Positions 26,150 to 42,683 are shown, numbered from the stretch's first letter. The stretch: 45,980 nt of DNA from a virus (IMGVR_UViG_2529292882_000016); one strand, 5' to 3'. Notes: generated from the sequence alone by a model not told the origin. A program made the numbers and translations.

Positions 26150-26192
26150 AAGCTGTGTGGCGAAGTAACCACTCTTAACACGATACAATACT

Positions 26193-26221
26193 TTTTGCGT
26201 ACGCGTTAGTGTTTTAGTAAT
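26193..26221 (+). promoter_or_regulatory. Candidate sigma70 promoter for the cassette: -35 TTGCGT, 17-bp spacer, -10 TAATAT
   Basis: Hexamers read directly from the sequence about 40 bp upstream of the first cassette ATG. Confidence 0.3.
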
Positions 26222-26257
26222 ATCCTGAAGTACGTTTATCTATTGATATCTATAGAA

Positions 26258-27349
26258 ATGAAGAAAATCGAAAAACTGTTCACTGAAGTAATACGGAAGT
26301 TGCGCCATAAGAAATTTATGCGCTCGATAGCTAGTAAAAGAAGCACAACAGAAAGAAAACTAAAACGTAATGGAAGTTTAAAAAAAATCTCTCCAGAAAA
26401 AATACTTGCTCCAACCATACTTGATATTTACAAGGCGGAATATCATGAGAATGTGGTTAATTTTATAGAAAAAATAGAAAACAAAGCAAAAACAGGAAAT
26501 AAAAAGATATATATATGCTTCAGAAATACAATTCACATATCGGCTGCTGCTGGCTTATTTCTTCTTGCAAAACTAGAGACATTAAAAAGCAATCATAAGG
26601 GCTTAAAATATATCGTAGCCAAACCTCCAATTAAAACTTCATCAAAAGGAGAGCAGCACGTTGTTGATTCTGTTTTGAACAGAATCGGTATCTATGCAGC
26701 ATTAGGTGTTAAATCAAGAGAAATGAGAGAAACTCCGTCTGTAAAATGTTGGGAGGTAATTCGTGGCGAACTCGTAGATTCGGAAATTGCGGGGAACTTA
26801 TTAGAAACAATCACAGAAAGAATGGGTACCGATTATACAGATTTATATCGCCCCTTGATAGAAGCCATGTCTAATTCAGTAGAGCATGCATATCGAGACG
26901 ATTTATATGACTCAAATAAAAATAATAATAAAAATAAATGGTGGTGCTTTGCTGCAATTATGAACAACAAGTTAATATTACTAATTTGTGACCTCGGTGT
27001 CGGTATACCTAAAACGTTAAAACTCACTCAAGGTGAAAAGGTTCTTGCAAAACTAACCGAGTTCCTTGGTAAGCCATTAGTCCTTGATTCAGAACATATA
27101 AAAGCCTCATTGCAAGTTAAACGAACCCGAACAAAGCTTGGATACAGAGGGAAAGGAGGAACTGATTTACAATCTATCATAGAAAACTTTGAAAATGCAC
27201 AATTACGGATTATATCCAACAAAGGAAATTACAGATATACTCATCGTAAGAAAGCAAGACCAGAGTTAATGTGGGATGCCAAACATTCCATCAACGGTAC
27301 TATAGTTGAATGGAGCGTACCGCTACCAAATGAAGGAGACCCCCAATGA
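26258..27349 (+). CDS. GHKL-superfamily ATPase/kinase, RsbW/SpoIIAB-like C-terminal domain with ~190-aa N-terminal extension (363 aa from ATG 26258)
   Basis: N-box-like EAMSNSVEHAY, G1 box ICDLGVGIP (DxGxG), G2-like GYRGKGGTDL, with appropriate spacing; AT-rich; stop overlaps next gene's ATG (ATGA). Confidence 0.75.
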   Translation: MKKIEKLFTEVIRKLRHKKFMRSIASKRSTTERKLKRNGSLKKISPEKILAPTILDIYKAEYHENVVNFIEKIENKAKTGNKKIYICFRNTIHISAAAGLFLLAKLETLKSNHKGLKYIVAKPPIKTSSKGEQHVVDSVLNRIGIYAALGVKSREMRETPSVKCWEVIRGELVDSEIAGNLLETITERMGTDYTDLYRPLIEAMSNSVEHAYRDDLYDSNKNNNKNKWWCFAAIMNNKLILLICDLGVGIPKTLKLTQGEKVLAKLTEFLGKPLVLDSEHIKASLQVKRTRTKLGYRGKGGTDLQSIIENFENAQLRIISNKGNYRYTHRKKARPELMWDAKHSINGTIVEWSVPLPNEGDPQ

Positions 27350-27663
27350 AAACCTTATTTATCAAGGACTTTTCAAGATTCCCGGGACCTAGATACGAAA
27401 GGTTAGGTGAAAACAGTGGCGAAAAATTCCGCGATTTATTTTTGATACCAGCACTTAGCAAAGATCCAGACTTAGTCATTGACTTTGATGGTGTTTTTGG
27501 CTATGGCTCATCTTTCCTTGAGGAGGCCTTTGGAGGTTTGGTGCGTAAAGGGATAGAGCGCGAAAAATTGGAGAAGCTTAAGAAGAATCTCAAAAGTAAA
27601 GATCAATACATTATTGAGGAAGTAATTTCATATATAGATGATGCTCTGAGAGAACTAAAATAA
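27346..27663 (+). CDS. STAS-like protein, anti-sigma-factor-antagonist-like / DUF4325-like (105 aa)
   Basis: VIDFDGVFGYGSSFLEEAFGG resembles the SpoIIAA/RsbV loop (DLSGVSFMDSSGLG) including the Ser-Ser; translationally coupled on both sides. Confidence 0.7.
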   Translation: MKTLFIKDFSRFPGPRYERLGENSGEKFRDLFLIPALSKDPDLVIDFDGVFGYGSSFLEEAFGGLVRKGIEREKLEKLKKNLKSKDQYIIEEVISYIDDALRELK

Positions 27664-28124
27664 TGGACACTGACGTTACTCAGAATTTATGGACAATGCC
27701 TGCAACGATTATAGCGATTGCTGGCATTTTTTTAACAATATTAGGCTGGATAGTCACAGCAATATTTACTCGCATTAACAACGCGAAAAATTTAAAAAAA
27801 CTAGAAATAAATAGGCTTATTGATGAGTTATTTTATAAATTAGATTTCATTTATAGCGAAATGCTTGAATTGCTGCGAGACGATAAAAAAGACAAACAAG
27901 TCCTATATTACATTTTTACATCATCAGTAAGGCATGTTGAGTTTATTTGCGAGCGAATTGAGTTATTAGACAACAAGAAAAACAAAGACAATGGATTAAT
28001 ATCTGAATTAAGGCAAGCATGCACTAACGATGCGAAATATGAAAAAGAAAAAATAGGAACAACATTACATGAAATTCAAAGCGCTAATGAAAAACTCAAA
28101 AACAAATATCTAAAATCCTTTTAA
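27663..28124 (+). CDS. Small membrane protein with N-terminal transmembrane segment and helical cytoplasmic region (153 aa)
   Basis: Hydrophobic stretch MPATIIAIAGIFLTILGWIVTAIF then Lys/Glu-rich helices; start overlaps previous stop (TAATG). Confidence 0.65.
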   Translation: MDTDVTQNLWTMPATIIAIAGIFLTILGWIVTAIFTRINNAKNLKKLEINRLIDELFYKLDFIYSEMLELLRDDKKDKQVLYYIFTSSVRHVEFICERIELLDNKKNKDNGLISELRQACTNDAKYEKEKIGTTLHEIQSANEKLKNKYLKSF

Positions 28125-28130
28125 ATAAAA

Positions 28131-28165
28131 AAGGACCGGCGGCTTAGCCGGTTCCTTTTTATTTT
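28131..28165. terminator. Bidirectional rho-independent terminator between the cassette and Q
   Basis: AAAAAGGACCGGCGGCTTAGCCGGTTCCTTTTTATTTT: GC stem flanked by an A-run and a T-run. Confidence 0.7.
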
Positions 28166-28503
28166 ATTACACAAAGGCATCCATCAATAAACCCCATTGC
28201 CGTTTGCATCTCTTTCCGTATTGTTCCATCTGAACATTTCCGTTTTTTAGCAATAGCGCGTAATGAGATACCAATAACAAAGTGAGCAATGATCAACTCA
28301 TACTCTTCGGGTTTATACTTTCGCAACCGAGCCACACAACCGTCTATCATGATACCTTCGTCATCATCACACTGGAGACGTGACTTTTTACCGTGTGGTA
28401 AAAGCCCCTTGAAGCCTGCTGCTATCGGCTGCCAGTCCACACCACTGTTATCTGCTGCAGCCCAGGCCCCCCAACGATCTAAAACTTCGTACATATCACG
28501 CAT
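28159..28503 (-). CDS. Late-gene antiterminator Q, QuuD-like (114 aa from ATG 28503)
   Basis: MRDMYEVLDRWGAWAAADNSGVDWQPIAAGFKGL... and the Cys-rich QCDDDEGIMIDGC closely resemble QuuD-type Q proteins as I recall them; start overlaps upstream stop. Confidence 0.8.
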   Translation of the reverse strand: MRDMYEVLDRWGAWAAADNSGVDWQPIAAGFKGLLPHGKKSRLQCDDDEGIMIDGCVARLRKYKPEEYELIIAHFVIGISLRAIAKKRKCSDGTIRKEMQTAMGFIDGCLCVIK

Positions 28504-28760
28504 CAGCGCAGTACCTCCTGCACCAGTTTTTCGAACTTTCCAACTTTGGTTTCCAGCTCTGCCACACAATCCACCAGCTCATCCACTGCTTTTTGTGCGC
28601 GGTGTTTCGCCTGCATCAGTTCCCTGAGCGCTGGCACCATATCCTTACGAATGGCATCTTTTGTTACGCCTGTCTTTTCCAGTTGTTCCGCCTGTCGTAA
28701 CATTTCCTGTGCCTGTTTACGTAATTGTTCAGGCGTAAAAGTCATGGTCTGGTTGTTCAA
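28503..28760 (-). CDS. Hypothetical protein (85 aa)
   Basis: Helical, between DnaB-like gene and Q; overlapping start/stop junctions. Confidence 0.45.
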   Translation of the reverse strand: MNNQTMTFTPEQLRKQAQEMLRQAEQLEKTGVTKDAIRKDMVPALRELMQAKHRAQKAVDELVDCVAELETKVGKFEKLVQEVLR

Positions 28761-34759: not shown

Positions 34760-34840
34760 CACACTGGATACTCTGTTATCCAAGAATGTTAAACGCGAGA
34801 ACCCAAAGTATCAAGAAATTCTGTTACTTTAGTATCAGCA
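34760..34840. promoter_or_regulatory. Divergent promoter/operator region (OR-like) with repeated GTATC/GATAC half-sites
   Basis: GGATACTCTGTTATCC (34766..34781), AGTATCA at 34807 and 34831, TCTGTTAC at 34822; between the divergently transcribed cro-like and cI-like genes. Confidence 0.4.
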
Positions 34841-34860
34841 GCCATGAAAGGAGAAGAAAA

Positions 34861-35517
34861 ATGAAATCTTTAGGTGAACGCCTCATCAACGCACGACAAA
34901 AAGCTGGGTTAACGCAAGATGCGTTGGCTAAAAAAGCAGGGGTCACCAGAGTTGCAATCAGTAAAGCCGAGCAAGGCCTTACAAAAAGTTTCAACGGTGA
35001 CACCCTTTTTAAAGTCGCAGCTGCACTGCAGTGTTCACCGCAGTGGCTTCAGAACGGAGATGAAAAAGATAAGCATTGGGAAAATAATGTTAAGAGCTGC
35101 CCACAGAGAGACACAGCACACTCTTACCCTGTAATTAACTGGGTTCAGGCAGGATTATTCGCAACTGCTGGTGATGACTACAACATGTATGATCAGGATA
35201 ATTGGAGGCATTCTGTAAAATACGCTGGTGAGAGGGGGTTCTGGCTGGAAGTGCACGGAGACTCAATGACTTCGCCCGTAGGAATAACATTTCCTGAAGG
35301 AATGTCGATCCTTGTCAACCCAGATAAAGAAGTTTTTTCAGGGTGTTACGTCATCGCCAGAAAAAAATCTACCAATGAAGCAACATTCAAAAAATATATT
35401 TCTGAAATGGGAAAGGCGTTTCTAAAGCCCCTTAATCCACAATATCCAATCATAGAAATGGACAATGATTGCGAAATAGTAGGTGTTGTGGTTGATGCCA
35501 GGTGGGATATTTTCTGA
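34861..35517 (+). CDS. cI-type repressor, HTH plus LexA-like S24 peptidase domain (218 aa from ATG 34861)
   Basis: N-terminal HTH (LTQDALAKKAGVTRVAISKAEQG) and C-terminal S24-like region (WLEVHGDSMTSPVGITFPEGM...VIARKK...); AAGGAG RBS. Confidence 0.85.
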   Translation: MKSLGERLINARQKAGLTQDALAKKAGVTRVAISKAEQGLTKSFNGDTLFKVAAALQCSPQWLQNGDEKDKHWENNVKSCPQRDTAHSYPVINWVQAGLFATAGDDYNMYDQDNWRHSVKYAGERGFWLEVHGDSMTSPVGITFPEGMSILVNPDKEVFSGCYVIARKKSTNEATFKKYISEMGKAFLKPLNPQYPIIEMDNDCEIVGVVVDARWDIF

Positions 35518-35620: not shown

Positions 35621-36124
35621 ATGATCAATAAAGCTACAACTCTTGACTGTCTCGAAGAACTGAAAAACCTCGGCAGCCTCATTACACTAATAGCAAAAGC
35701 AACACCAGATGCTACGCTCTCTAGCGATATAGAGTCATGCGCAGGACTGGCATGGGATATGACAAATAGCATATCCAGAAAGCTATCGTCAGCAATGCTT
35801 TTACAGAACAAAAATTCTGCAATCAACAACCGTCTTCGCACCCAACGCGAAGACTGCGGCTTAACAACAGCCGAACTCGCCAGACTGCTCGACCTCGATG
35901 AAGAAATCATCATCCAGTGGGAAAGCGGAGAGCACGAACCAACCATCAGCATGCTTATCCCTCTGGCTAATGTTCTTGGCTGTGATCCGATGTGGCTGTT
36001 AACTGGCGAGGTTACTCCTCCGGAGCAACCAAAAAGTGAGGAGCAGCAACACCATGACGCATCTCAACAAGTTTGCTCCTTATCTCGCGAAGCTCTTCTA
36101 CGGAAGAACCAATACCAATGGTGA
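35621..36124 (+). CDS. XRE-family HTH protein (167 aa)
   Basis: HTH segment LTTAELARLLDLDEEIIIQWESGEHEPTISMLIPLANVLGCDPMWLLTG; GAGGT RBS; first gene after the OL-like region. Confidence 0.6.
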   Translation: MINKATTLDCLEELKNLGSLITLIAKATPDATLSSDIESCAGLAWDMTNSISRKLSSAMLLQNKNSAINNRLRTQREDCGLTTAELARLLDLDEEIIIQWESGEHEPTISMLIPLANVLGCDPMWLLTGEVTPPEQPKSEEQQHHDASQQVCSLSREALLRKNQYQW

Positions 36125-36252
36125 CATAATCGCCGCTTCGCCCCTCAAGGTACATGCGAACATTTTTATCAATCATTGCGGAAACAGTCTCAATATGAAA
36201 ACACTTCTGAGACTCGCTATATAGCAGAACATATAAGTCAGCTGAGGAAGCC

Positions 36253-36618
36253 ATGAAAAAGTTCGAAAACATAACTGTTCTCCATGTTGATGACTTTGAT
36301 TATACAAACCCGGACCTTCTCCCGGAGGTTGTAAAGGCAATAGATGTTGCCGATATAGTGATTAGAGGAAAGAGAATTGTCAAAAACAGGCTCGCATGCA
36401 CTTCAGGAGCAATGACAGAAACAACCTCACAACAAGATGATTATGAAGGCATTTGTCTGGAGCCTGACTCATTTGCGGTAAATGTTTATCATTTATTGCA
36501 TGCAACACAGGTATTACATATGTCAAGTAATCACGAAACAAAAACACTTGGCAGCGAAATTCTGAATTTTGCATGTGAATATGCAAAAGCTGCTGCCGAA
36601 AAAGAATTAGCGCAATAA
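36253..36618 (+). CDS. Hypothetical protein (121 aa), AT-rich
   Basis: ORF only; GAGGAAG upstream of the ATG. Confidence 0.45.
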   Translation: MKKFENITVLHVDDFDYTNPDLLPEVVKAIDVADIVIRGKRIVKNRLACTSGAMTETTSQQDDYEGICLEPDSFAVNVYHLLHATQVLHMSSNHETKTLGSEILNFACEYAKAAAEKELAQ

Positions 36619-36814
36619 CAATAAATATTCCCTAAATGTTTATTACGGTTTTATCGCCGGGGATTGTTGCAACCTTTATTCGCAGGAGATTATGTTATGA
36701 CTTTCCTGAAACATAAGGCATCGTATAAAACTACCCGCCTCATTGCACAACATGGAGATTCTTATCTTCATATAGCCAGCCTGTATTTGCGCAAAGCATA
36801 TGGGAGATAAGTCA

Positions 36815-37003
36815 ATGGAAGAAAAACAACAAAACATAACACATAAAAAAGTAAGAGTGTTGCTAACCATTGAAAATGGTGAAGTAATTTACTCAAAACA
36901 TCTGTTGGATAATGAATTCGTTGGCTGCATGGATACATTTCTGTGGATGGCAAAAAGAGCGGGTTACACGATTATTCCACCAGCAAAGGAGCAAACATTA
37001 TGA
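36815..37003 (+). CDS. Hypothetical small protein (62 aa)
   Basis: GGGAGA RBS before ATG 36815; stop overlaps next ATG (ATGA). Confidence 0.4.
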   Translation: MEEKQQNITHKKVRVLLTIENGEVIYSKHLLDNEFVGCMDTFLWMAKRAGYTIIPPAKEQTL

Positions 37004-37581
37004 GTCATTCAGAGTTCCGACCAGAAGTTACGCCACATGGCATAAAAATTGGCAATACAACCATTGATTATGTTGAGGCCGTACAGCGGCTTAATGATGG
37101 TGAATACGATTATCCAAACTCACACGGTTTAAGAATCATGCAATGTATTGCTGAAGCCGATGATGCAGGGTTGCTGGGACGATTTTCAGTCGATATGAAG
37201 GTTGCTCAGTGGCGATGGCTGTATGTGACTACGTTTATAAATGAAGAGAAAGACAAGAACGGTACCGTTGATATCCCTAACGATAACGGAACTACAGATC
37301 ACGCGGTTATTTACAAGGGTAAACATGGTTGCCTGAGTATCTACCCCGGACCACTTCGTATTGCCCTGCAAAACCACGTCGAATGGGGATTTATTGAAAA
37401 ATATGGCGAAGCTGAAGGCATGGGGCGAGTTCTGTTTCTCTATCAAAAAATGCTCATCGCAGATCCTGATAATGGTTTCATTATTTCTGCTATGGGGCGC
37501 GAAGGGCTTGAACTCCTTCTGGATGAAATGATGAACGACCTGAATACTCATGGTATGCCAGAAGCGCCAGTGACACATTAA
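37000..37581 (+). CDS. Hypothetical protein (193 aa)
   Basis: AAGGAG RBS 7 nt upstream of ATG 37000; translationally coupled to the upstream small ORF. Confidence 0.5.
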   Translation: MSHSEFRPEVTPHGIKIGNTTIDYVEAVQRLNDGEYDYPNSHGLRIMQCIAEADDAGLLGRFSVDMKVAQWRWLYVTTFINEEKDKNGTVDIPNDNGTTDHAVIYKGKHGCLSIYPGPLRIALQNHVEWGFIEKYGEAEGMGRVLFLYQKMLIADPDNGFIISAMGREGLELLLDEMMNDLNTHGMPEAPVTH

Positions 37582-37757
37582 ATATTAAGAAGAATATAAT
37601 TCTTCCATCTTTTACTAACCGTTTATATGAAAAGCAACCGTGAATTAAACAGAGTAAAACTGATTTTAATCCTTACCACAGTACTGACACTAACTGAAAT
37701 CATTATTCTCTTTATTGCGCTGTCAGTCGGTTAAAAATATCTGGATACCACAGACCA

Positions 37758-37946
37758 ATGAGACTGTATTTCACAATAGTAATTTTACTGGCAATTATCG
37801 CATGCATTTACGGATTACTCGTTCCGTTCCTTATATCTATGAAGGATACGATAGCAGTTATTTCTGGCTTTGCACTGGCGTTTCTGACCCCGCCCTGCAT
37901 TTATGCCATTTACAAGGGTCTTTCTTTCACTAAGGATAAAAGATGA
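37758..37946 (+). CDS. Small membrane protein (62 aa, two predicted transmembrane segments), coupled to the SPFH gene
   Basis: Hydrophobic sequence MRLYFTIVILLAIIACIYGLLVPFLIS...; stop overlaps the SPFH gene ATG (ATGA). Confidence 0.4.
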   Translation: MRLYFTIVILLAIIACIYGLLVPFLISMKDTIAVISGFALAFLTPPCIYAIYKGLSFTKDKR

Positions 37947-38770
37947 AAAAAATTATTTTTGCTTTAGCCATTGTTCTGCCGACTATTGGCCTTGTCGGTT
38001 GCGATCGCGTTGAACCAGGTAATGTTGGCATCAAGGTAAATAAACTGGGCGACGACAAAGGCGTCGGTGAGGTGGTCGGTGTTGGTCGCTACTGGACTGG
38101 CTGGAATACTGAAGTTTATATCTTCCCCACCTTCAAACAAATGAAGACCTACGATGAACCGTTCAGTTTCCAGATGAGTGACGGTACAACCATCGGCTAT
38201 CACATCGGTGTGGCCTACAAAGTTGATCCATCCAAAGTTACCACGGTGTTTCAGACCTACCGCAAAGGCGTGGATGACATTACCGACACTGACCTGCGCC
38301 AGAAGATCGCCGACGCACTCAACCGACTGGCCAGCAAAATGACCACCGACAAATTTATCGATGGCGGGAAGTCTGAACTACTGGATGCAGCTCTTAAAGA
38401 CATTCAGGAGGAAATGACACCCATCGGTATTCAGGTAATGAGCCTCTCATATGTAGGTAAGCCGGAGTACCCGTCAACCGTTATCGACAGCATTAATGCC
38501 AAAGTCACGGCGAACCAGAAAACACTGCAGCGCGAGCAGGAAGTAAAACAGCGCGAAGCGGAAGCCAATATGTTGCGCGCAGAAGCTGCCGGACAGGCTG
38601 ATGCGATTCGCACAAAAGCCCAGGCCGAAGCTGATGCTATTCGTTTACGCGGTGAAGCTCTGCGCCAGAACCCCGGCGTTATGGAGCTGGAAGCCATCAA
38701 TAAATGGAACGGCACACTGCCGCAATACATGACCAGCGGTGCTAATACACCATTTATCCAGGTTAAATAA
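37943..38770 (+). CDS. SPFH/band-7 (prohibitin/stomatin-like) domain lipoprotein (275 aa)
   Basis: Signal peptide with lipobox LVGC; central SPFH-like region and Ala/Glu-rich coiled-coil tail (EAEANMLRAEAAGQADAIRTKAQAEADAIRLRGEALRQNPGVMELEAINKWNG). Confidence 0.75.
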   Translation: MKKIIFALAIVLPTIGLVGCDRVEPGNVGIKVNKLGDDKGVGEVVGVGRYWTGWNTEVYIFPTFKQMKTYDEPFSFQMSDGTTIGYHIGVAYKVDPSKVTTVFQTYRKGVDDITDTDLRQKIADALNRLASKMTTDKFIDGGKSELLDAALKDIQEEMTPIGIQVMSLSYVGKPEYPSTVIDSINAKVTANQKTLQREQEVKQREAEANMLRAEAAGQADAIRTKAQAEADAIRLRGEALRQNPGVMELEAINKWNGTLPQYMTSGANTPFIQVK

Positions 38771-39602: not shown

Positions 39603-39812
39603 GTGGGGCTGGATTGCGTACCTATATCAACCTACTGCCGCAACGCAGGAGAAACGGTTGATGCCGTTAACAAACGGATACAAAGAGGAATATGGAAAGA
39701 AGGGGTACATGTATTAAAAGTCGACGGAGTTAAAGAACGTTGGGTCGACTTAATGGAGATTACAAAATGGGCAAGAAAGAACAAGGATCACTATCTCTCC
39801 CTAGAGGAGTAA
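39603..39812 (+). CDS. xis: Excisionase-like protein (69 aa; GTG start assumed)
   Basis: Small basic protein immediately upstream of and overlapping int, as in lambda xis-int; winged-helix-like composition. Confidence 0.5.
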   Translation: MGLDCVPISTYCRNAGETVDAVNKRIQRGIWKEGVHVLKVDGVKERWVDLMEITKWARKNKDHYLSLEE

Positions 39813-40939
39813 CTATTCGCCAGCATAAAACTGGTAGCACTCTGGTTATCACTTTTACATATAAAGGGGTTCTGTGTCGGGAGCCCCTCTCCAGAATGGA
39901 AGTAAACGCGCGCGGTGTGAAGTACGCTGAGCGTCTGCTGGGAGAAATAAAAAATCAGATTATCGATGGTACCTTCGAATATGCAAAATACTTCCCCAAC
40001 TCCCAAAAGCTGGAGTTGTTCGGGGGAGTGAAAAAAAACAAAAATATAAAATCTTACCTGGATGAATACCTGATTATCTGCCAGAACCGTAACCTGTCAC
40101 CATCGACAATTAGAGGTTATGAAAAATGCCTGTCGGCGCTGTCAGCATTGCATAAATTTCATGTATCAGAACTGACACCTGCAGTACTAAAAAACTGGAT
40201 CGCCAGCAGAAAAACAAAACTGAAAACTATCCGCAATAATCTTTCATTCTTGCGCAGCGCCATAGATGAAGCGGTGACCGATGGTTTGTTAACAATAAAT
40301 CCTGTCACGCTAGTCAGCGCCAGCCGGTATCACGTATTGGACAACACACCAGGCAGTGATGATTACGAGGTCGATCCTTTTACACCAGCGGAGACGGCAG
40401 CAATCTATGACGCCTGTCATTACCCGGAATGGCGAAATCTGTTTCGCTTTGCCTTTAATACAGGACTGCGCAGCTCAGAATTGTGCGCGTTGCGCTGGAC
40501 GGATATAGACTTTATCGGCAACACCGCGCATGTTCAGACTGCAAGCGTAGTCGGGGTAATCAAAAGCACCAAAACAAAAGCCGGCACCCGCAAAGTGCAA
40601 CTGAACAGCGAAGCGCTGGCGGCTCTTCAGGCACAAAAGCCCTACACGGCGCTAAAGAGCGACTTCATATTCAGCGATCCGAAAACTCGCGCTCCTTGGG
40701 CAAACGCAGATGCGATCCGAAAAAAAGCCTGGGTACCAACCCTTAAAAAAGCTGGTGTACGCTATCGCAATCCGTACCAGACACGCCACACGTTCGCCAC
40801 TCGGCACATTAGCCAGGGCGTTAACCTGTTCTGGCTTGCTGGTCAGATGGGGCATAAAGGACCGGAAATGCTGTTCAGACATTACGGCTCTTACCTTGCA
40901 GAATACGATGGAAAAACGGCGATTTCTGCAACCCCGTAA
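39767..40939 (+). CDS. int: Tyrosine integrase, lambda Int-like (390 aa from ATG 39767)
   Basis: C-terminal catalytic region with RHTFATRHISQG...RHYGSYL (R/H/R/Y-type motifs); transcribed toward the att repeat at 41072. Confidence 0.85.
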   Translation: MGKKEQGSLSLPRGVTIRQHKTGSTLVITFTYKGVLCREPLSRMEVNARGVKYAERLLGEIKNQIIDGTFEYAKYFPNSQKLELFGGVKKNKNIKSYLDEYLIICQNRNLSPSTIRGYEKCLSALSALHKFHVSELTPAVLKNWIASRKTKLKTIRNNLSFLRSAIDEAVTDGLLTINPVTLVSASRYHVLDNTPGSDDYEVDPFTPAETAAIYDACHYPEWRNLFRFAFNTGLRSSELCALRWTDIDFIGNTAHVQTASVVGVIKSTKTKAGTRKVQLNSEALAALQAQKPYTALKSDFIFSDPKTRAPWANADAIRKKAWVPTLKKAGVRYRNPYQTRHTFATRHISQGVNLFWLAGQMGHKGPEMLFRHYGSYLAEYDGKTAISATP

Positions 40940-41071
40940 CGGCAAAATATTTCAAAATGTTGTACAGAATCAGGACGTTACCGGGACAACAATATGTACG
41001 TAAAATGCACATAATTCATTGTTTGAAAAAATAAATCGTTCATATTCAATAAATTGGATTAATCACGATCA

Positions 41072-41098
41072 CGGGTTCAACTCCCGCCAGCTCCACCA
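41072..41098. repeat. Second copy of the 27-bp att direct repeat (displaced ssrA 3' end)
   Basis: Identical to 1034..1060; the downstream flank (AAATTCTCCATCGGTGATTACC...) carries a terminator hairpin and is then followed by a P4-type integrase, as at the chromosomal ssrA locus. Confidence 0.85.
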
Positions 41099-41145
41099 AA
41101 ATTCTCCATCGGTGATTACCAGAGTCATCCGATGAAGTCCTAAGA

Positions 41146-41178
41146 GCCCGCACGGCGCAAGCCCTGCGGGCTTTTTTG
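41146..41178 (+). terminator. Rho-independent terminator (probable original ssrA terminator)
   Basis: GCCCGCA...TGCGGGC stem followed by TTTTTTGTG. Confidence 0.6.
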
Positions 41179-41303
41179 TGCCCTCAATTTGTCCCGCGAA
41201 GTCCGAAGAAAACTAATTAAATCCGATCCTTTTAGGCACCTTGTTAGGCACCTCATAAAGCTTTATTGTTTTTTGAGGTGCCTAAAACTATGGAAACCCG
41301 GCA

Positions 41304-42545
41304 ATGGCAAGACAAACCAAACCTCTATCCGTTAAAGAAATAGAATCAGCCAAACCCAAGGAGGCGGACTACGTTCTCTATGATGGCGATGGCCTTGAGC
41401 TACTCATTAAATCCAGCGGGAGTAAAATCTGGCAGTTTCGCTACATTCGCCCTGTCACCAAGAAACGAGCAAAGAAGAGCATAGGCTCCTACCCGTCAGT
41501 TACCCTTGCCGATGCCAGAAACTACCGTGCAGAGTCCCGCTCACTACTGGCTAAACAGATCGATCCGCAGGAACATCAGCAAGAACAATTGCGCAGTTCG
41601 CTGGAAGCCAAAACCAACACTTTCCAACTCGTAGCTGAACGTTGGTGGAATGTGAAGAAAGCCAGTGTGACAGAGGACTATGCGGAAGATATCTGGCGCT
41701 CTCTTGAAAGAGACGTCTTTCCTGCGATTGGCGACGTTAGCGTTACAGATATTAAAGCTCATACACTGGTTCAGGCCGTACAACCGGTTCAGGCCAGAGG
41801 AGCACTGGAAACTGTTCGTCGCCTGTGCCAACGTATTAATGAGGTCATGATCTATGCCCAGAACACAGGGCTGATTGATGCTGTTCCCAGCGTTAATATC
41901 GGTAAAGCCTTCGAGAAGCCTCAGAAAAAGAACATGCCCAGCATTCGACCGGATCAGCTACCTCAGTTAATGCAGACGATGCGAACAGCCAGCATTAGCC
42001 TTTCCACACGCTGCCTGTTCATGTGGCAACTTCTTACTATTACCCGCCCTGCCGAAGCGGCTGAAGCTCTCTGGGAAGAGGTAGACATAGAAGCGCGAGA
42101 GTGGAAGATTCCTGCAGCACGCATGAAAATGAACCGCGACCATACTGTTCCATTGTCAGATGAAGCAATTGCGATACTAGAGATGATGAAGCCGTTAAGT
42201 GGAAATCGAGAATTTATCTTTCCCAGCCGCATCAAGCCAAACCAGCCGATGAACAGTCAGACCGTAAACGCATCGCTAAAACGCGCAGGTTTTGGTGGGG
42301 TGCTCGTTTCACACGGCCTGCGATCTATCGCCAGTACAGCCCTTAATGAGCAGGGATTTCCACCTGATGTTATTGAGGCTGCACTTGCTCATGTGGATAA
42401 GAATGAGGTTCGTCGTGCGTATAACCGTAGTGATTATCTTGAGCAGCGACGGCCTATGATGCAGTGGTGGGCTGATTTTGTGATGGCTGCAGATCACGGT
42501 AGTATGATTGAAGGAGGGATAAAGGCAATGCGGTTAGTTGGATGA
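41304..42545 (+). CDS. intA: P4-type tyrosine integrase, CP4-57 IntA-like (413 aa)
   Basis: N-terminus MARQTKPLSVKEIESAKPKEADYVLYDGDGLELLIKSSGSKIWQFRY and C-terminus ...HVDKNEVRRAYNRSDYLEQRRPMMQWWADF typical of P4-family integrases; about 200 bp after the ssrA 3' end. Confidence 0.85.
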   Translation: MARQTKPLSVKEIESAKPKEADYVLYDGDGLELLIKSSGSKIWQFRYIRPVTKKRAKKSIGSYPSVTLADARNYRAESRSLLAKQIDPQEHQQEQLRSSLEAKTNTFQLVAERWWNVKKASVTEDYAEDIWRSLERDVFPAIGDVSVTDIKAHTLVQAVQPVQARGALETVRRLCQRINEVMIYAQNTGLIDAVPSVNIGKAFEKPQKKNMPSIRPDQLPQLMQTMRTASISLSTRCLFMWQLLTITRPAEAAEALWEEVDIEAREWKIPAARMKMNRDHTVPLSDEAIAILEMMKPLSGNREFIFPSRIKPNQPMNSQTVNASLKRAGFGGVLVSHGLRSIASTALNEQGFPPDVIEAALAHVDKNEVRRAYNRSDYLEQRRPMMQWWADFVMAADHGSMIEGGIKAMRLVG

Positions 42546-42625
42546 CATGTCGTAGCTAAAACCCGTTCTGTTTTTGGGTAGATTAACCTGAAGGTCTGCA
42601 ATTTTAAATGACGCTGAAAGAAGTT

Positions 42626-42651
42626 AAACCCTGCTCTTAAGCAGGGTTTTT
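42626..42651. terminator. Bidirectional terminator hairpin AAACCCTGC-TCTTAA-GCAGGGTTT
   Basis: 9-bp stem with T-run on plus and a T-rich tract on minus; lies between the convergent intA-like gene and the 767-aa gene. Confidence 0.6.
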
Positions 42652-42683
42652 ATGATTTATTCTAATTTTGGTTTTGAATCTTT

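Follow-up and report, generated by a model that had tools for sequence, protein, structure and literature searches.

Analysis of the window, that is, the whole 45,980-nt stretch of viral DNA studied here (IMGVR_UViG_2529292882_000016), indicates that the gene at positions 26258-27349 of the plus strand is the first of a trio, hereafter K, S and T, which forms a conserved, widespread and unnamed prophage operon, and that K, judged from its sequence, is a remote relative of the kinases CapK and VapK. K encodes a 363-aa STAS-GHKL protein kinase-like protein, S (27346..27663, plus strand) a 105-aa DUF4325 STAS-like protein (PF14213, E 2.1e-14) that is a putative kinase substrate, and T (27663-28124, plus strand; phrog_34309) a putative effector of 153 aa, a single-pass membrane protein whose four-helix bundle is cytoplasmic. 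The K-S sensing pair is of a known kind, whereas the membrane-protein output T is new and uncharacterised.

The reading frame of K is the same as that of a 363-aa E. coli 'hypothetical protein' in RefSeq, and the ATG at 26258 is preferred over the TTG at 26243 because M1 and K2 are at least 90% conserved in the family alignment. About 93 clusters of K homologs all fall between 330 and 390 aa, so the N-terminal part of the protein is a conserved feature of the family and not the product of a mis-called start. With clustering at 50%, an exhaustive HMM search yielded 4,011 representatives of the K family; 3,155 of them lay at E<=1e-10, and the best 150 of the 4,011 were all full-length.

The first-pass annotation had placed RsbW/SpoIIAB-like motifs in the C-terminal half of K, and translation confirmed each of them at its position on the plus strand: the N-box EAMSNSVEHAY (aa 202-212, nt 26861-26893), G1 DLGVGI (aa 245-250, nt 26990-27007) and G2 YRGKGG (aa 296-301, nt 27143-27160); it also located a G3-like GT pair (aa 347-348, nt 27296-27301). 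They lie in a GHKL (Bergerat) kinase domain spanning residues ~175-360 (26780..27337, plus strand), and the N-box ExxxNxxxH, G1 DxGxG and the G2 GxG of the ATP lid are found in the correct order and with the correct spacing. Conservation was scored on an alignment of 54 sequences reaching down to ~21% identity, in which E202, N206, H210, Y212, D245, G247, R297, G298, G300, G347 and T348 are invariant and G249 is kept in 52 sequences. Invariance across such an alignment argues against chance matches, and the suspicion that the motifs might be fortuitous was not borne out by the predicted fold either, since the C-terminal half is modelled as an alpha/beta sandwich that matches solved GHKL domains. 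The closest solved structures are those of anti-sigma kinases. These data support the assignment of the C-terminal half of K to the RsbW/SpoIIAB-type Bergerat-fold kinase domains.

The N-terminal extension of ~190 aa, left unexplained by the first-pass annotation, proved to be real and conserved, and it resolves into a 48-aa Lys/Arg-rich tail (residues 1-48, 26258..26401, plus strand) followed by a STAS-fold domain (residues ~49-170, 26402..26767, plus strand), the same STAS-GHKL arrangement as in CapK and VapK. The lysine richness noted earlier is a property of the tail throughout the family (means of 47 aa, 35% K+R and a net charge of +14), while its sequence is poorly conserved; the tail is predicted to be mostly helical, with helices at residues 2-7 and 10-27 (pLDDT 66-83). 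K is very basic overall, the rest of the protein beyond residues 1-48 adding a charge of about +13. The STAS domain contains a conserved strand-loop-helix, 'ICFRNTxxI[TS]AAAGL' (aa 88-100, nt 26519-26557, plus strand), with Thr or Ser at the acceptor-like position 95 in 49 of the 54 sequences, and its segment also includes a linker motif, 'VxCW165'. A comparison of the K and S profiles with hhalign revealed no relation (E 0.45), so recent duplication of S did not give rise to the STAS domain of K. That K is a STAS-GHKL fusion is held with much higher confidence than the full mechanism proposed below. The N-terminus is therefore a known domain in a described architecture, although K has only remote kin in CapK and VapK, carries a basic tail in place of the CapK HTH, and is linked to a different, undescribed third gene.

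Standard profile collections had little to say about this family. Pfam, NCBIfam and PADLOC gave no usable match to K; the window protein did not match Pfam HATPase_c_2 at threshold, a precomputed PF13581 match was present in only one of 93 homologs, and the NCBIfam RsbW model NF003144 scored 14.1 bits against a cut-off of 145 bits. Among the profile sets tried, only PHROGs recognised the K family, as 'unknown function'. A search of PDB sequences with K alone found nothing significant, and with the K profile only RsbW was found, at E 0.031 and on the N-box. Foldseek against viral structures returned the GHKL domains of rIIA and topoisomerase II with weak E values of 3e-3 to 3e-2. PADLOC-DB v2.0.0 gave no family at E<=1 for K, S or T; this null result fits a novel system and, for the same reason, lends no independent support to a role in defence.

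The three genes are translationally coupled in a single operon: the stop of K overlaps the start of S (ATGA, preceded by a GGAGA Shine-Dalgarno), and the stop of S overlaps the start of T (TAATG). The operon is closed by a GC-rich hairpin between an A-run and a T-run at 28133..28154, identified by a terminator scan of both strands as a bidirectional, intrinsic-terminator-like element, which divides it from the convergent Q gene. The AT-rich intergenic region upstream of K (26189..26257, plus strand) is the presumed site of the operon promoter; a consensus scan found no promoter in this region, and TTGCGT-17 nt-TAATAT is a weak match seen by eye only. The K-S-T island has a GC content of 34.7%, against ~50-53% in the flanking minus-strand prophage DNA, and in a megablast search of the island against phages the match was limited to ~100 flanking nucleotides.

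To assess the linkage of the three genes, loci were drawn from four look-ups of gene neighbourhoods and from a scan in which each species was represented by one genome, yielding 44 K loci, of which ~36 are distinct (39 after the reciprocal look-ups). S lies directly downstream of K in 43 of the 44 loci, and a T homolog is the third gene in 32 of the ~36 distinct loci, which come from Gamma-, Beta- and Alphaproteobacteria. Three divergent loci (L011, L042 and L044) have no T homolog in third position, and the gene found there still encodes a small protein with hydrophobic segments. The reciprocal test gave the same picture, K and S preceding each of three distant T proteins. The trio has been confirmed in ~40 examined loci only, compared with about 4,000 K-family clusters at 50% identity. 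The three genes are functionally linked, a conclusion held with much greater confidence than the mechanism as a whole.

S consists of a STAS domain alone, and it cannot be a CapS-type repressor because it has no wHTH DNA-binding domain. Its putative phospho-acceptor, Ser55-Ser56 in 'GYG-SS-FLEE', is located at the N-terminus of STAS helix alpha2 (27508..27513, plus strand) within a near-invariant motif, G-Y-G-S55-S56-F-L-E-E-x-F-G-G; among 35 distinct S proteins, S56 is present in all and S55 in 32. S55 aligns to S48 of VapS and S56 to S54 of CapS; in an alignment with the STAS structure 3t6o, the motif falls on 'GSSF'. This generic STAS protein was the only match (E ~0.07) when the PDB was searched with S alone or with its profile, and the entries of VapS and CapS (9Z7O and 9Z71) were not among the matches. 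Since the hhalign matches of the S profile to VapS (E 0.008) and CapS (E 0.04) are both weak, the link between S and VapS rests on their common membership of PF14213, which VapS matches at E 2.7e-17. S is the obvious candidate substrate of K, which would phosphorylate it.

T has homologs in 75 clusters. Its AF2 model (pLDDT 81) is all helical, with a predicted long helix (residues 7-72) that opens with a hydrophobic segment and three further helices that complete the bundle. The segment, residues 12-35 (27696..27767, plus strand; maximum of 2.55-2.67 in a 19-residue Kyte-Doolittle window), is the transmembrane helix, and the predicted topology is N-out/C-in in 42 of 43 sequences. G28-W29 (nt 27744-27749) is found in all 43. 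The cytoplasmic bundle carries 'LRQACT' at residues 116-121 (28008..28025, plus strand), an instance of a conserved [LF]-[RK]-x-x-x-[TS] in which position 117 is R or K in 43/43 sequences and position 121 is Thr in 41 and Ser in 2. No PIN domain, other significant Pfam match or enzymatic domain was detected in T, its comparison with VapC by BLASTP revealed no similarity (E 2.8), and its fold matches generic four-helix bundles only. Many abortive-infection effectors are small membrane proteins. T may be toxic and may be bound by S.

The genomic settings of the trio are of several kinds. The window itself is a lambdoid prophage with genes for terminase, HNH, lysis, Q, DnaB, a DnaC-like and an O-like protein, Rha/Ash, cI and integrase, and the operon is inserted between Q and the holin/endolysin (lysis) genes, convergent with Q, antisense to the late transcript and with its own terminator. 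Among 5,426 complete E. coli genomes, six have the operon in the same Q-to-lysis site, with 96% identity. A second setting is directly downstream of a same-strand cI-type S24 repressor, in at least nine loci, with gaps of 13-61 nt in four of them (L011, L014, L022 and L042); in Marinobacter phage AS1 the trio likewise directly follows cI on the same strand, and in Francisella phage KIRK it follows cI as judged from the published gene table. This is the position occupied by rexAB in lambda. In five to six loci, including L048, L026, L034 and L036, the trio lies within or abuts Type I hsd operons, in the order HsdM-HsdS-K-S-T-HsdR in L048 and with K overlapping the stop of HsdS in L026. Some copies adjoin Mrr/ISP restriction genes and HEPN-MNT genes, and others are found in chromosomal islets without nearby phage genes. 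With a crude marker panel, phage or R-M hallmarks were detected within 6 kb in 22 of the 39 distinct loci, and 17 had no phage or R-M marker. A few copies were observed on plasmids. The best reading is that K-S-T is a self-contained, horizontally acquired cargo of the lambdoid prophage.

The STAS-GHKL architecture was described for CapK and VapK by Chambers et al. (EMBO J 2026; PMC13373217). These authors showed experimentally that CapK (HTH-STAS-GHKL) phosphorylates the repressor CapS (STAS-wHTH) at S54 with ssDNA, and they described CapK-CapS as ssDNA-activated regulators of CBASS, Bub and other operons (PMC13373217). VapKSC, composed of the STAS-GHKL kinase VapK, the DUF4325 STAS antitoxin VapS and the PIN toxin VapC, protects against phage Bas42 and requires VapS S48, VapC D28 and VapK F54, the last proposed to stack on ssDNA (PMC13373217). 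For our comparisons the CapK and VapK sequences were taken from the appendix of that study and the VapK numbering from its AF3 file (PMC13373217). The K profile aligned collinearly over both domains with VapK (E 2e-5, probability 77%, 267 columns) and with CapK (E 7e-6, probability 84%, 219 columns) in hhalign, the relationship being remote at ~21-22% identity; the VapK match starts at profile column 53, which corresponds to residue 48 of K. At the ssDNA-binding groove CapK and VapK have a conserved aromatic, W68 and F54 respectively. The column equivalent to VapK F54 (H93 in K, an equivalence judged from the remote alignment) is variable, with H in 11, R in 8, K in 6, F in 5, I in 5 and Y in 4 of the 54 sequences, and the CapK K237/K239 region is not kept basic in the K family.

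VapKSC is the closest counterpart in organisation. Both systems have the same gene order, a kinase followed by a small STAS protein and a third component, both kinases have a STAS domain directly before the GHKL domain and no HTH, VapS and S are PF14213 members that share the position of a conserved Ser, and both operons are found near other defence genes. They differ in several respects: the third gene encodes a PIN nuclease in VapKSC and a 153-aa single-pass membrane four-helix-bundle protein in K-S-T; K has the 48-aa Lys/Arg tail and the 'VxCW' linker insertion, both absent from VapK; and VapS (116 aa) has a C-terminal helix extension reaching the VapC active site, which S (105 aa), judged by sequence, lacks. 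Since T is not a PIN nuclease, we did not file K-S-T as VapKSC. With CapK-CapS the trio shares the STAS-GHKL core of the kinase, the 'SS-F' acceptor motif of the substrate and an occasional location beside R-M systems. However, CapK has an N-terminal HTH and CapS a C-terminal wHTH, whereas K has the tail and no Pfam HTH and S has no wHTH, and for this reason K is not a CapK in the strict sense; moreover, CapK-CapS controls a downstream multi-gene immune operon, while the output of K-S would be the single small protein T.

Other comparisons are looser. SpoIIAB and RsbW are single-domain, sigma-binding proteins of ~140-150 aa, in contrast to the 363 aa of K with its own STAS domain and no linked sigma factor; the solved chains of this family (141-150 aa) bear out the earlier remark that its members normally reach only ~150 aa. 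Membership of K in the RsbW/SpoIIAB family was considered and rejected, given the failure of the curated models, the lack of a linked sigma factor and the extra domain. Like lambda RexA-RexB, K-S-T is a prophage-encoded module that would be expressed in the lysogen and would pair a cytoplasmic sensor with a membrane protein, a functional analogy only: no sequence relationship was found between them, the PADLOC models gave no match, RexB is polytopic in contrast to the single TM helix predicted for T, and the kinase-STAS sensing chemistry of K-S-T is unrelated to Rex. Similarly, the analogy with PrrC/rlo genes is contextual only, both being placed in Type I hsd loci, since the PrrC/rlo proteins are unrelated to K-S-T and no anticodon-nuclease domain occurs in the trio. 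The positions of the trio resemble those of abortive-infection genes known to lie inside hsd loci. Full-text literature searches found no description of a kinase-DUF4325-membrane-protein trio, and searches on DUF4325, STAS plus GHKL, and VapKSC returned only Chambers et al. and incidental mentions (PMC13373217); a 2017 PIN catalogue noted only the coupling of PIN with DUF4325.

By analogy with VapKSC, we consider that K-S-T has a slightly better than even chance of being a similar, kinase-gated anti-phage module in which a membrane effector replaces the PIN toxin. From the architecture of K, its catalytic motifs, the conservation of the acceptor serines, the gene linkage, the topology of T and the prophage and R-M contexts, we infer that K would act on S, that S would bind T, that a trigger would switch the system and that T would be toxic, giving an anti-phage function. 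In the uninfected lysogen, S would be bound to the cytoplasmic helical bundle of T and keep it inactive. Upon infection, an associated cue (a nucleic acid, for instance ssDNA, being the likeliest) would activate K, the basic protein sensing it through the STAS-GHKL groove and/or the Lys/Arg tail. Active K would then phosphorylate S at Ser55 or Ser56, phospho-S would leave T, and free T would perturb the inner membrane, so that the infected cell would be arrested or killed, or the incoming phage excluded, and the lysogen population protected. The trigger and the action of the effector are held with less confidence than the mechanism in general. The trigger may not be ssDNA, because the VapK F54 column is variable and the CapK K237/K239 region is not basic, and the phospho-wiring may differ from that of VapKSC, because the [RK]xxx[TS] of T is invariant and Thr/Ser95 of K is kept.

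A broader reading, possible but doubtful, is that K-S-T represents a widespread, unnamed anti-phage or exclusion system comparable to Rex, in which a kinase-driven STAS switch gates a minimal membrane effector in response to a trigger other than ssDNA; the non-conservation of the ssDNA-contact residues, the addition of the basic tail and the presence of the 'VxCW' insertion suggest such a trigger. There might also be additional phospho-sites, with Thr/Ser95 of K as a cis pseudo-substrate and Thr121 of T.

It is unlikely, although several features would fit, that T is not the effector but a membrane anchor, sensor or substrate, with K as the output enzyme acting on phage or host proteins or on Thr121 of T, and S as a partner-switching regulator or pseudo-substrate. 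The invariant [RK]117-x3-[TS]121 of T and its lack of a recognisable toxic domain are consistent with this arrangement, the Thr/Ser95 of the K STAS domain (49/54) hints at extra phospho-regulation, and the basic tail could tether K to the membrane near T. However, where relatives have been characterised, no substrate other than the STAS protein has been demonstrated and the effector role falls to the third component (PMC13373217), and the third genes of L011, L042 and L044, which still encode small proteins with hydrophobic segments, suggest a slot with exchangeable effectors more than a fixed sensor.

The location of the operon in the window and the six E. coli genomes, with the Q antiterminator on one side and the holin/endolysin genes on the other, raises the question of whether it serves the life cycle of the prophage, K and S regulating T to control lysis timing or the holin or to exclude superinfecting DNA at entry, and not abortive infection. 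T is indeed a small membrane protein, and superinfection-exclusion genes are typically expressed from a position after cI. We nevertheless regard this explanation as very unlikely: the window operon ends in a terminator of its own and is oriented against the late transcript, and since the trio is also found in Type I R-M operons and phage-free chromosomal islets, its function cannot depend on the lysis cassette of one phage. Part of this explanation overlaps with the defence module favoured here, because exclusion at entry is compatible with a defence role.

The anti-sigma framing of the first-pass annotation, in which K would sequester a host or phage sigma factor that S releases, so that the operon would serve transcriptional regulation and not defence, found little to sustain it and appears highly improbable. 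That anti-sigma kinases are the closest solved structures, the agreement of the K N-box with the RsbW 'EAxTNAxxHAY' and the adjoining STAS partner gene speak for such a switch; but no sigma factor gene is linked to the trio in ~39 distinct loci, the NCBIfam RsbW score (14 bits) is far from its cut-off (145), the extra STAS domain and basic tail of K recall CapK and VapK, which are not anti-sigma factors, the product of the conserved third gene is a membrane protein, and the trio occurs inside hsd operons and after cI. Finally, GHKL domains being mostly ATPases, K being very basic overall and the weak viral Foldseek matches being to rIIA and topoisomerase II, K could be taken as a MORC/MutL/rIIA-type ATPase, and not a protein kinase, that spends ATP on conformational changes acting on DNA or membrane, S and T being its accessory subunits, a reading to which we assign a very slight chance.

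The kinase-STAS module was tied to immunity only in 2026, a repressor and a PIN toxin being its sole outputs so far. If the proposed mechanism is true, T would add a third common output and the kinase-STAS pair would be a general plug-in, a sensor cassette of bacterial immunity whose effector can be swapped; T itself would represent a new, minimal type of membrane effector. The trio is likely a cargo that protects the lysogen, placed at two classic prophage sites, one following cI and the other separating Q from the lysis genes. A function would also be provided for three 'hypothetical' families, phrog_3364, DUF4325 and phrog_34309, members of which are carried by temperate phages of Escherichia, Klebsiella, Pseudomonas, Vibrio, Haemophilus, Francisella and others.

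Within the STAS domain of the STAS-GHKL kinase-like protein (363 aa, 26258-27349, plus strand), residue 95 (26540-26542) is the N-cap residue of helix alpha2 and belongs to the motif formed by residues 88-100 (26519-26557). It is Thr or Ser in 49 of the 54 sequences of the family, whereas the remote kinase relatives VapK and CapK have Arg and Leu, respectively, at this position. In antagonist STAS proteins, the helix alpha2 N-cap position is the phosphorylated site. Thr/Ser95 may act as a pseudo-substrate in cis or as an autophosphorylation site. A further conserved motif, [RK]-x-x-x-[TS], is found at residues 116-121 (28008-28025) of the putative effector, in the cytoplasmic bundle of this 153-aa membrane protein, and is invariant in all 43 sequences. 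It could represent a second phospho-site or the surface that binds the DUF4325 STAS-like protein, the putative kinase substrate. In phrog_5816 (441 positions), the match to the latter (27346-27663) is confined to the C-terminal ~100 positions (342-439), and therefore longer phage proteins with a C-terminal DUF4325 domain also exist; the N-terminal part of phrog_5816 showed no match to the kinase-like protein.

In the region 26258-28569, the operon formed by these three genes is flanked by the Q antiterminator gene on one side and the lysis genes on the other, and its strand is opposite to theirs. Late transcripts that depend on Q would consequently cross all three genes in antisense, and this could silence the operon upon prophage induction.

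At other loci (locus-internal coordinates), the trio was found inside or directly adjoining Type I restriction-modification operons (L048:1-8817; L026:49-7684; L034:8-7741; L036:64-7851), a placement that resembles that of the prrC and rlo genes. In L048, the three genes, in the order kinase-like, STAS-like and membrane protein, are inserted between HsdM-HsdS and HsdR, and in L026 the start of the kinase-like gene overlaps the HsdS stop. A divergent variant is located downstream of a prophage cI gene (L011:3737-7308; also L012 and L013). Here, the 341-aa kinase-like protein and its STAS-like partner are followed by a 201-aa protein that is non-homologous to the membrane protein and has a hydrophobic stretch around residue 49. 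Next to it are the genes for a 211-aa protein, whose PARP-like match is weak (E 3.6e-4), and for a SecB-like protein. The Vibrio islet with the trio has a nearby gene of metallo-beta-lactamase fold with a faint Pfam match to Anti-Pycsar Apyc1 (L005:9725-10804).

In the window, the prophage cI gene (34786-35517) is followed directly by a second lower-GC stretch (~40-44%; 35621-38770, plus strand), which encodes an HTH_3 protein (35621-36124), ORFs of 121 aa (36253-36618) and 212 aa (36943-37581), both without a Pfam match, and an SPFH/Band7 protein (37943-38770), all on the plus strand, and these could be additional lysogen-expressed cargo or defence genes. Further downstream (39740-44987), two tyrosine integrases in tandem (39740-40939 and 41304-42545, plus strand) are followed by a 767-aa minus-strand ORF without a Pfam match (42684-44987) in DNA of ~34% GC, which suggests a second integrated element adjoining the prophage.
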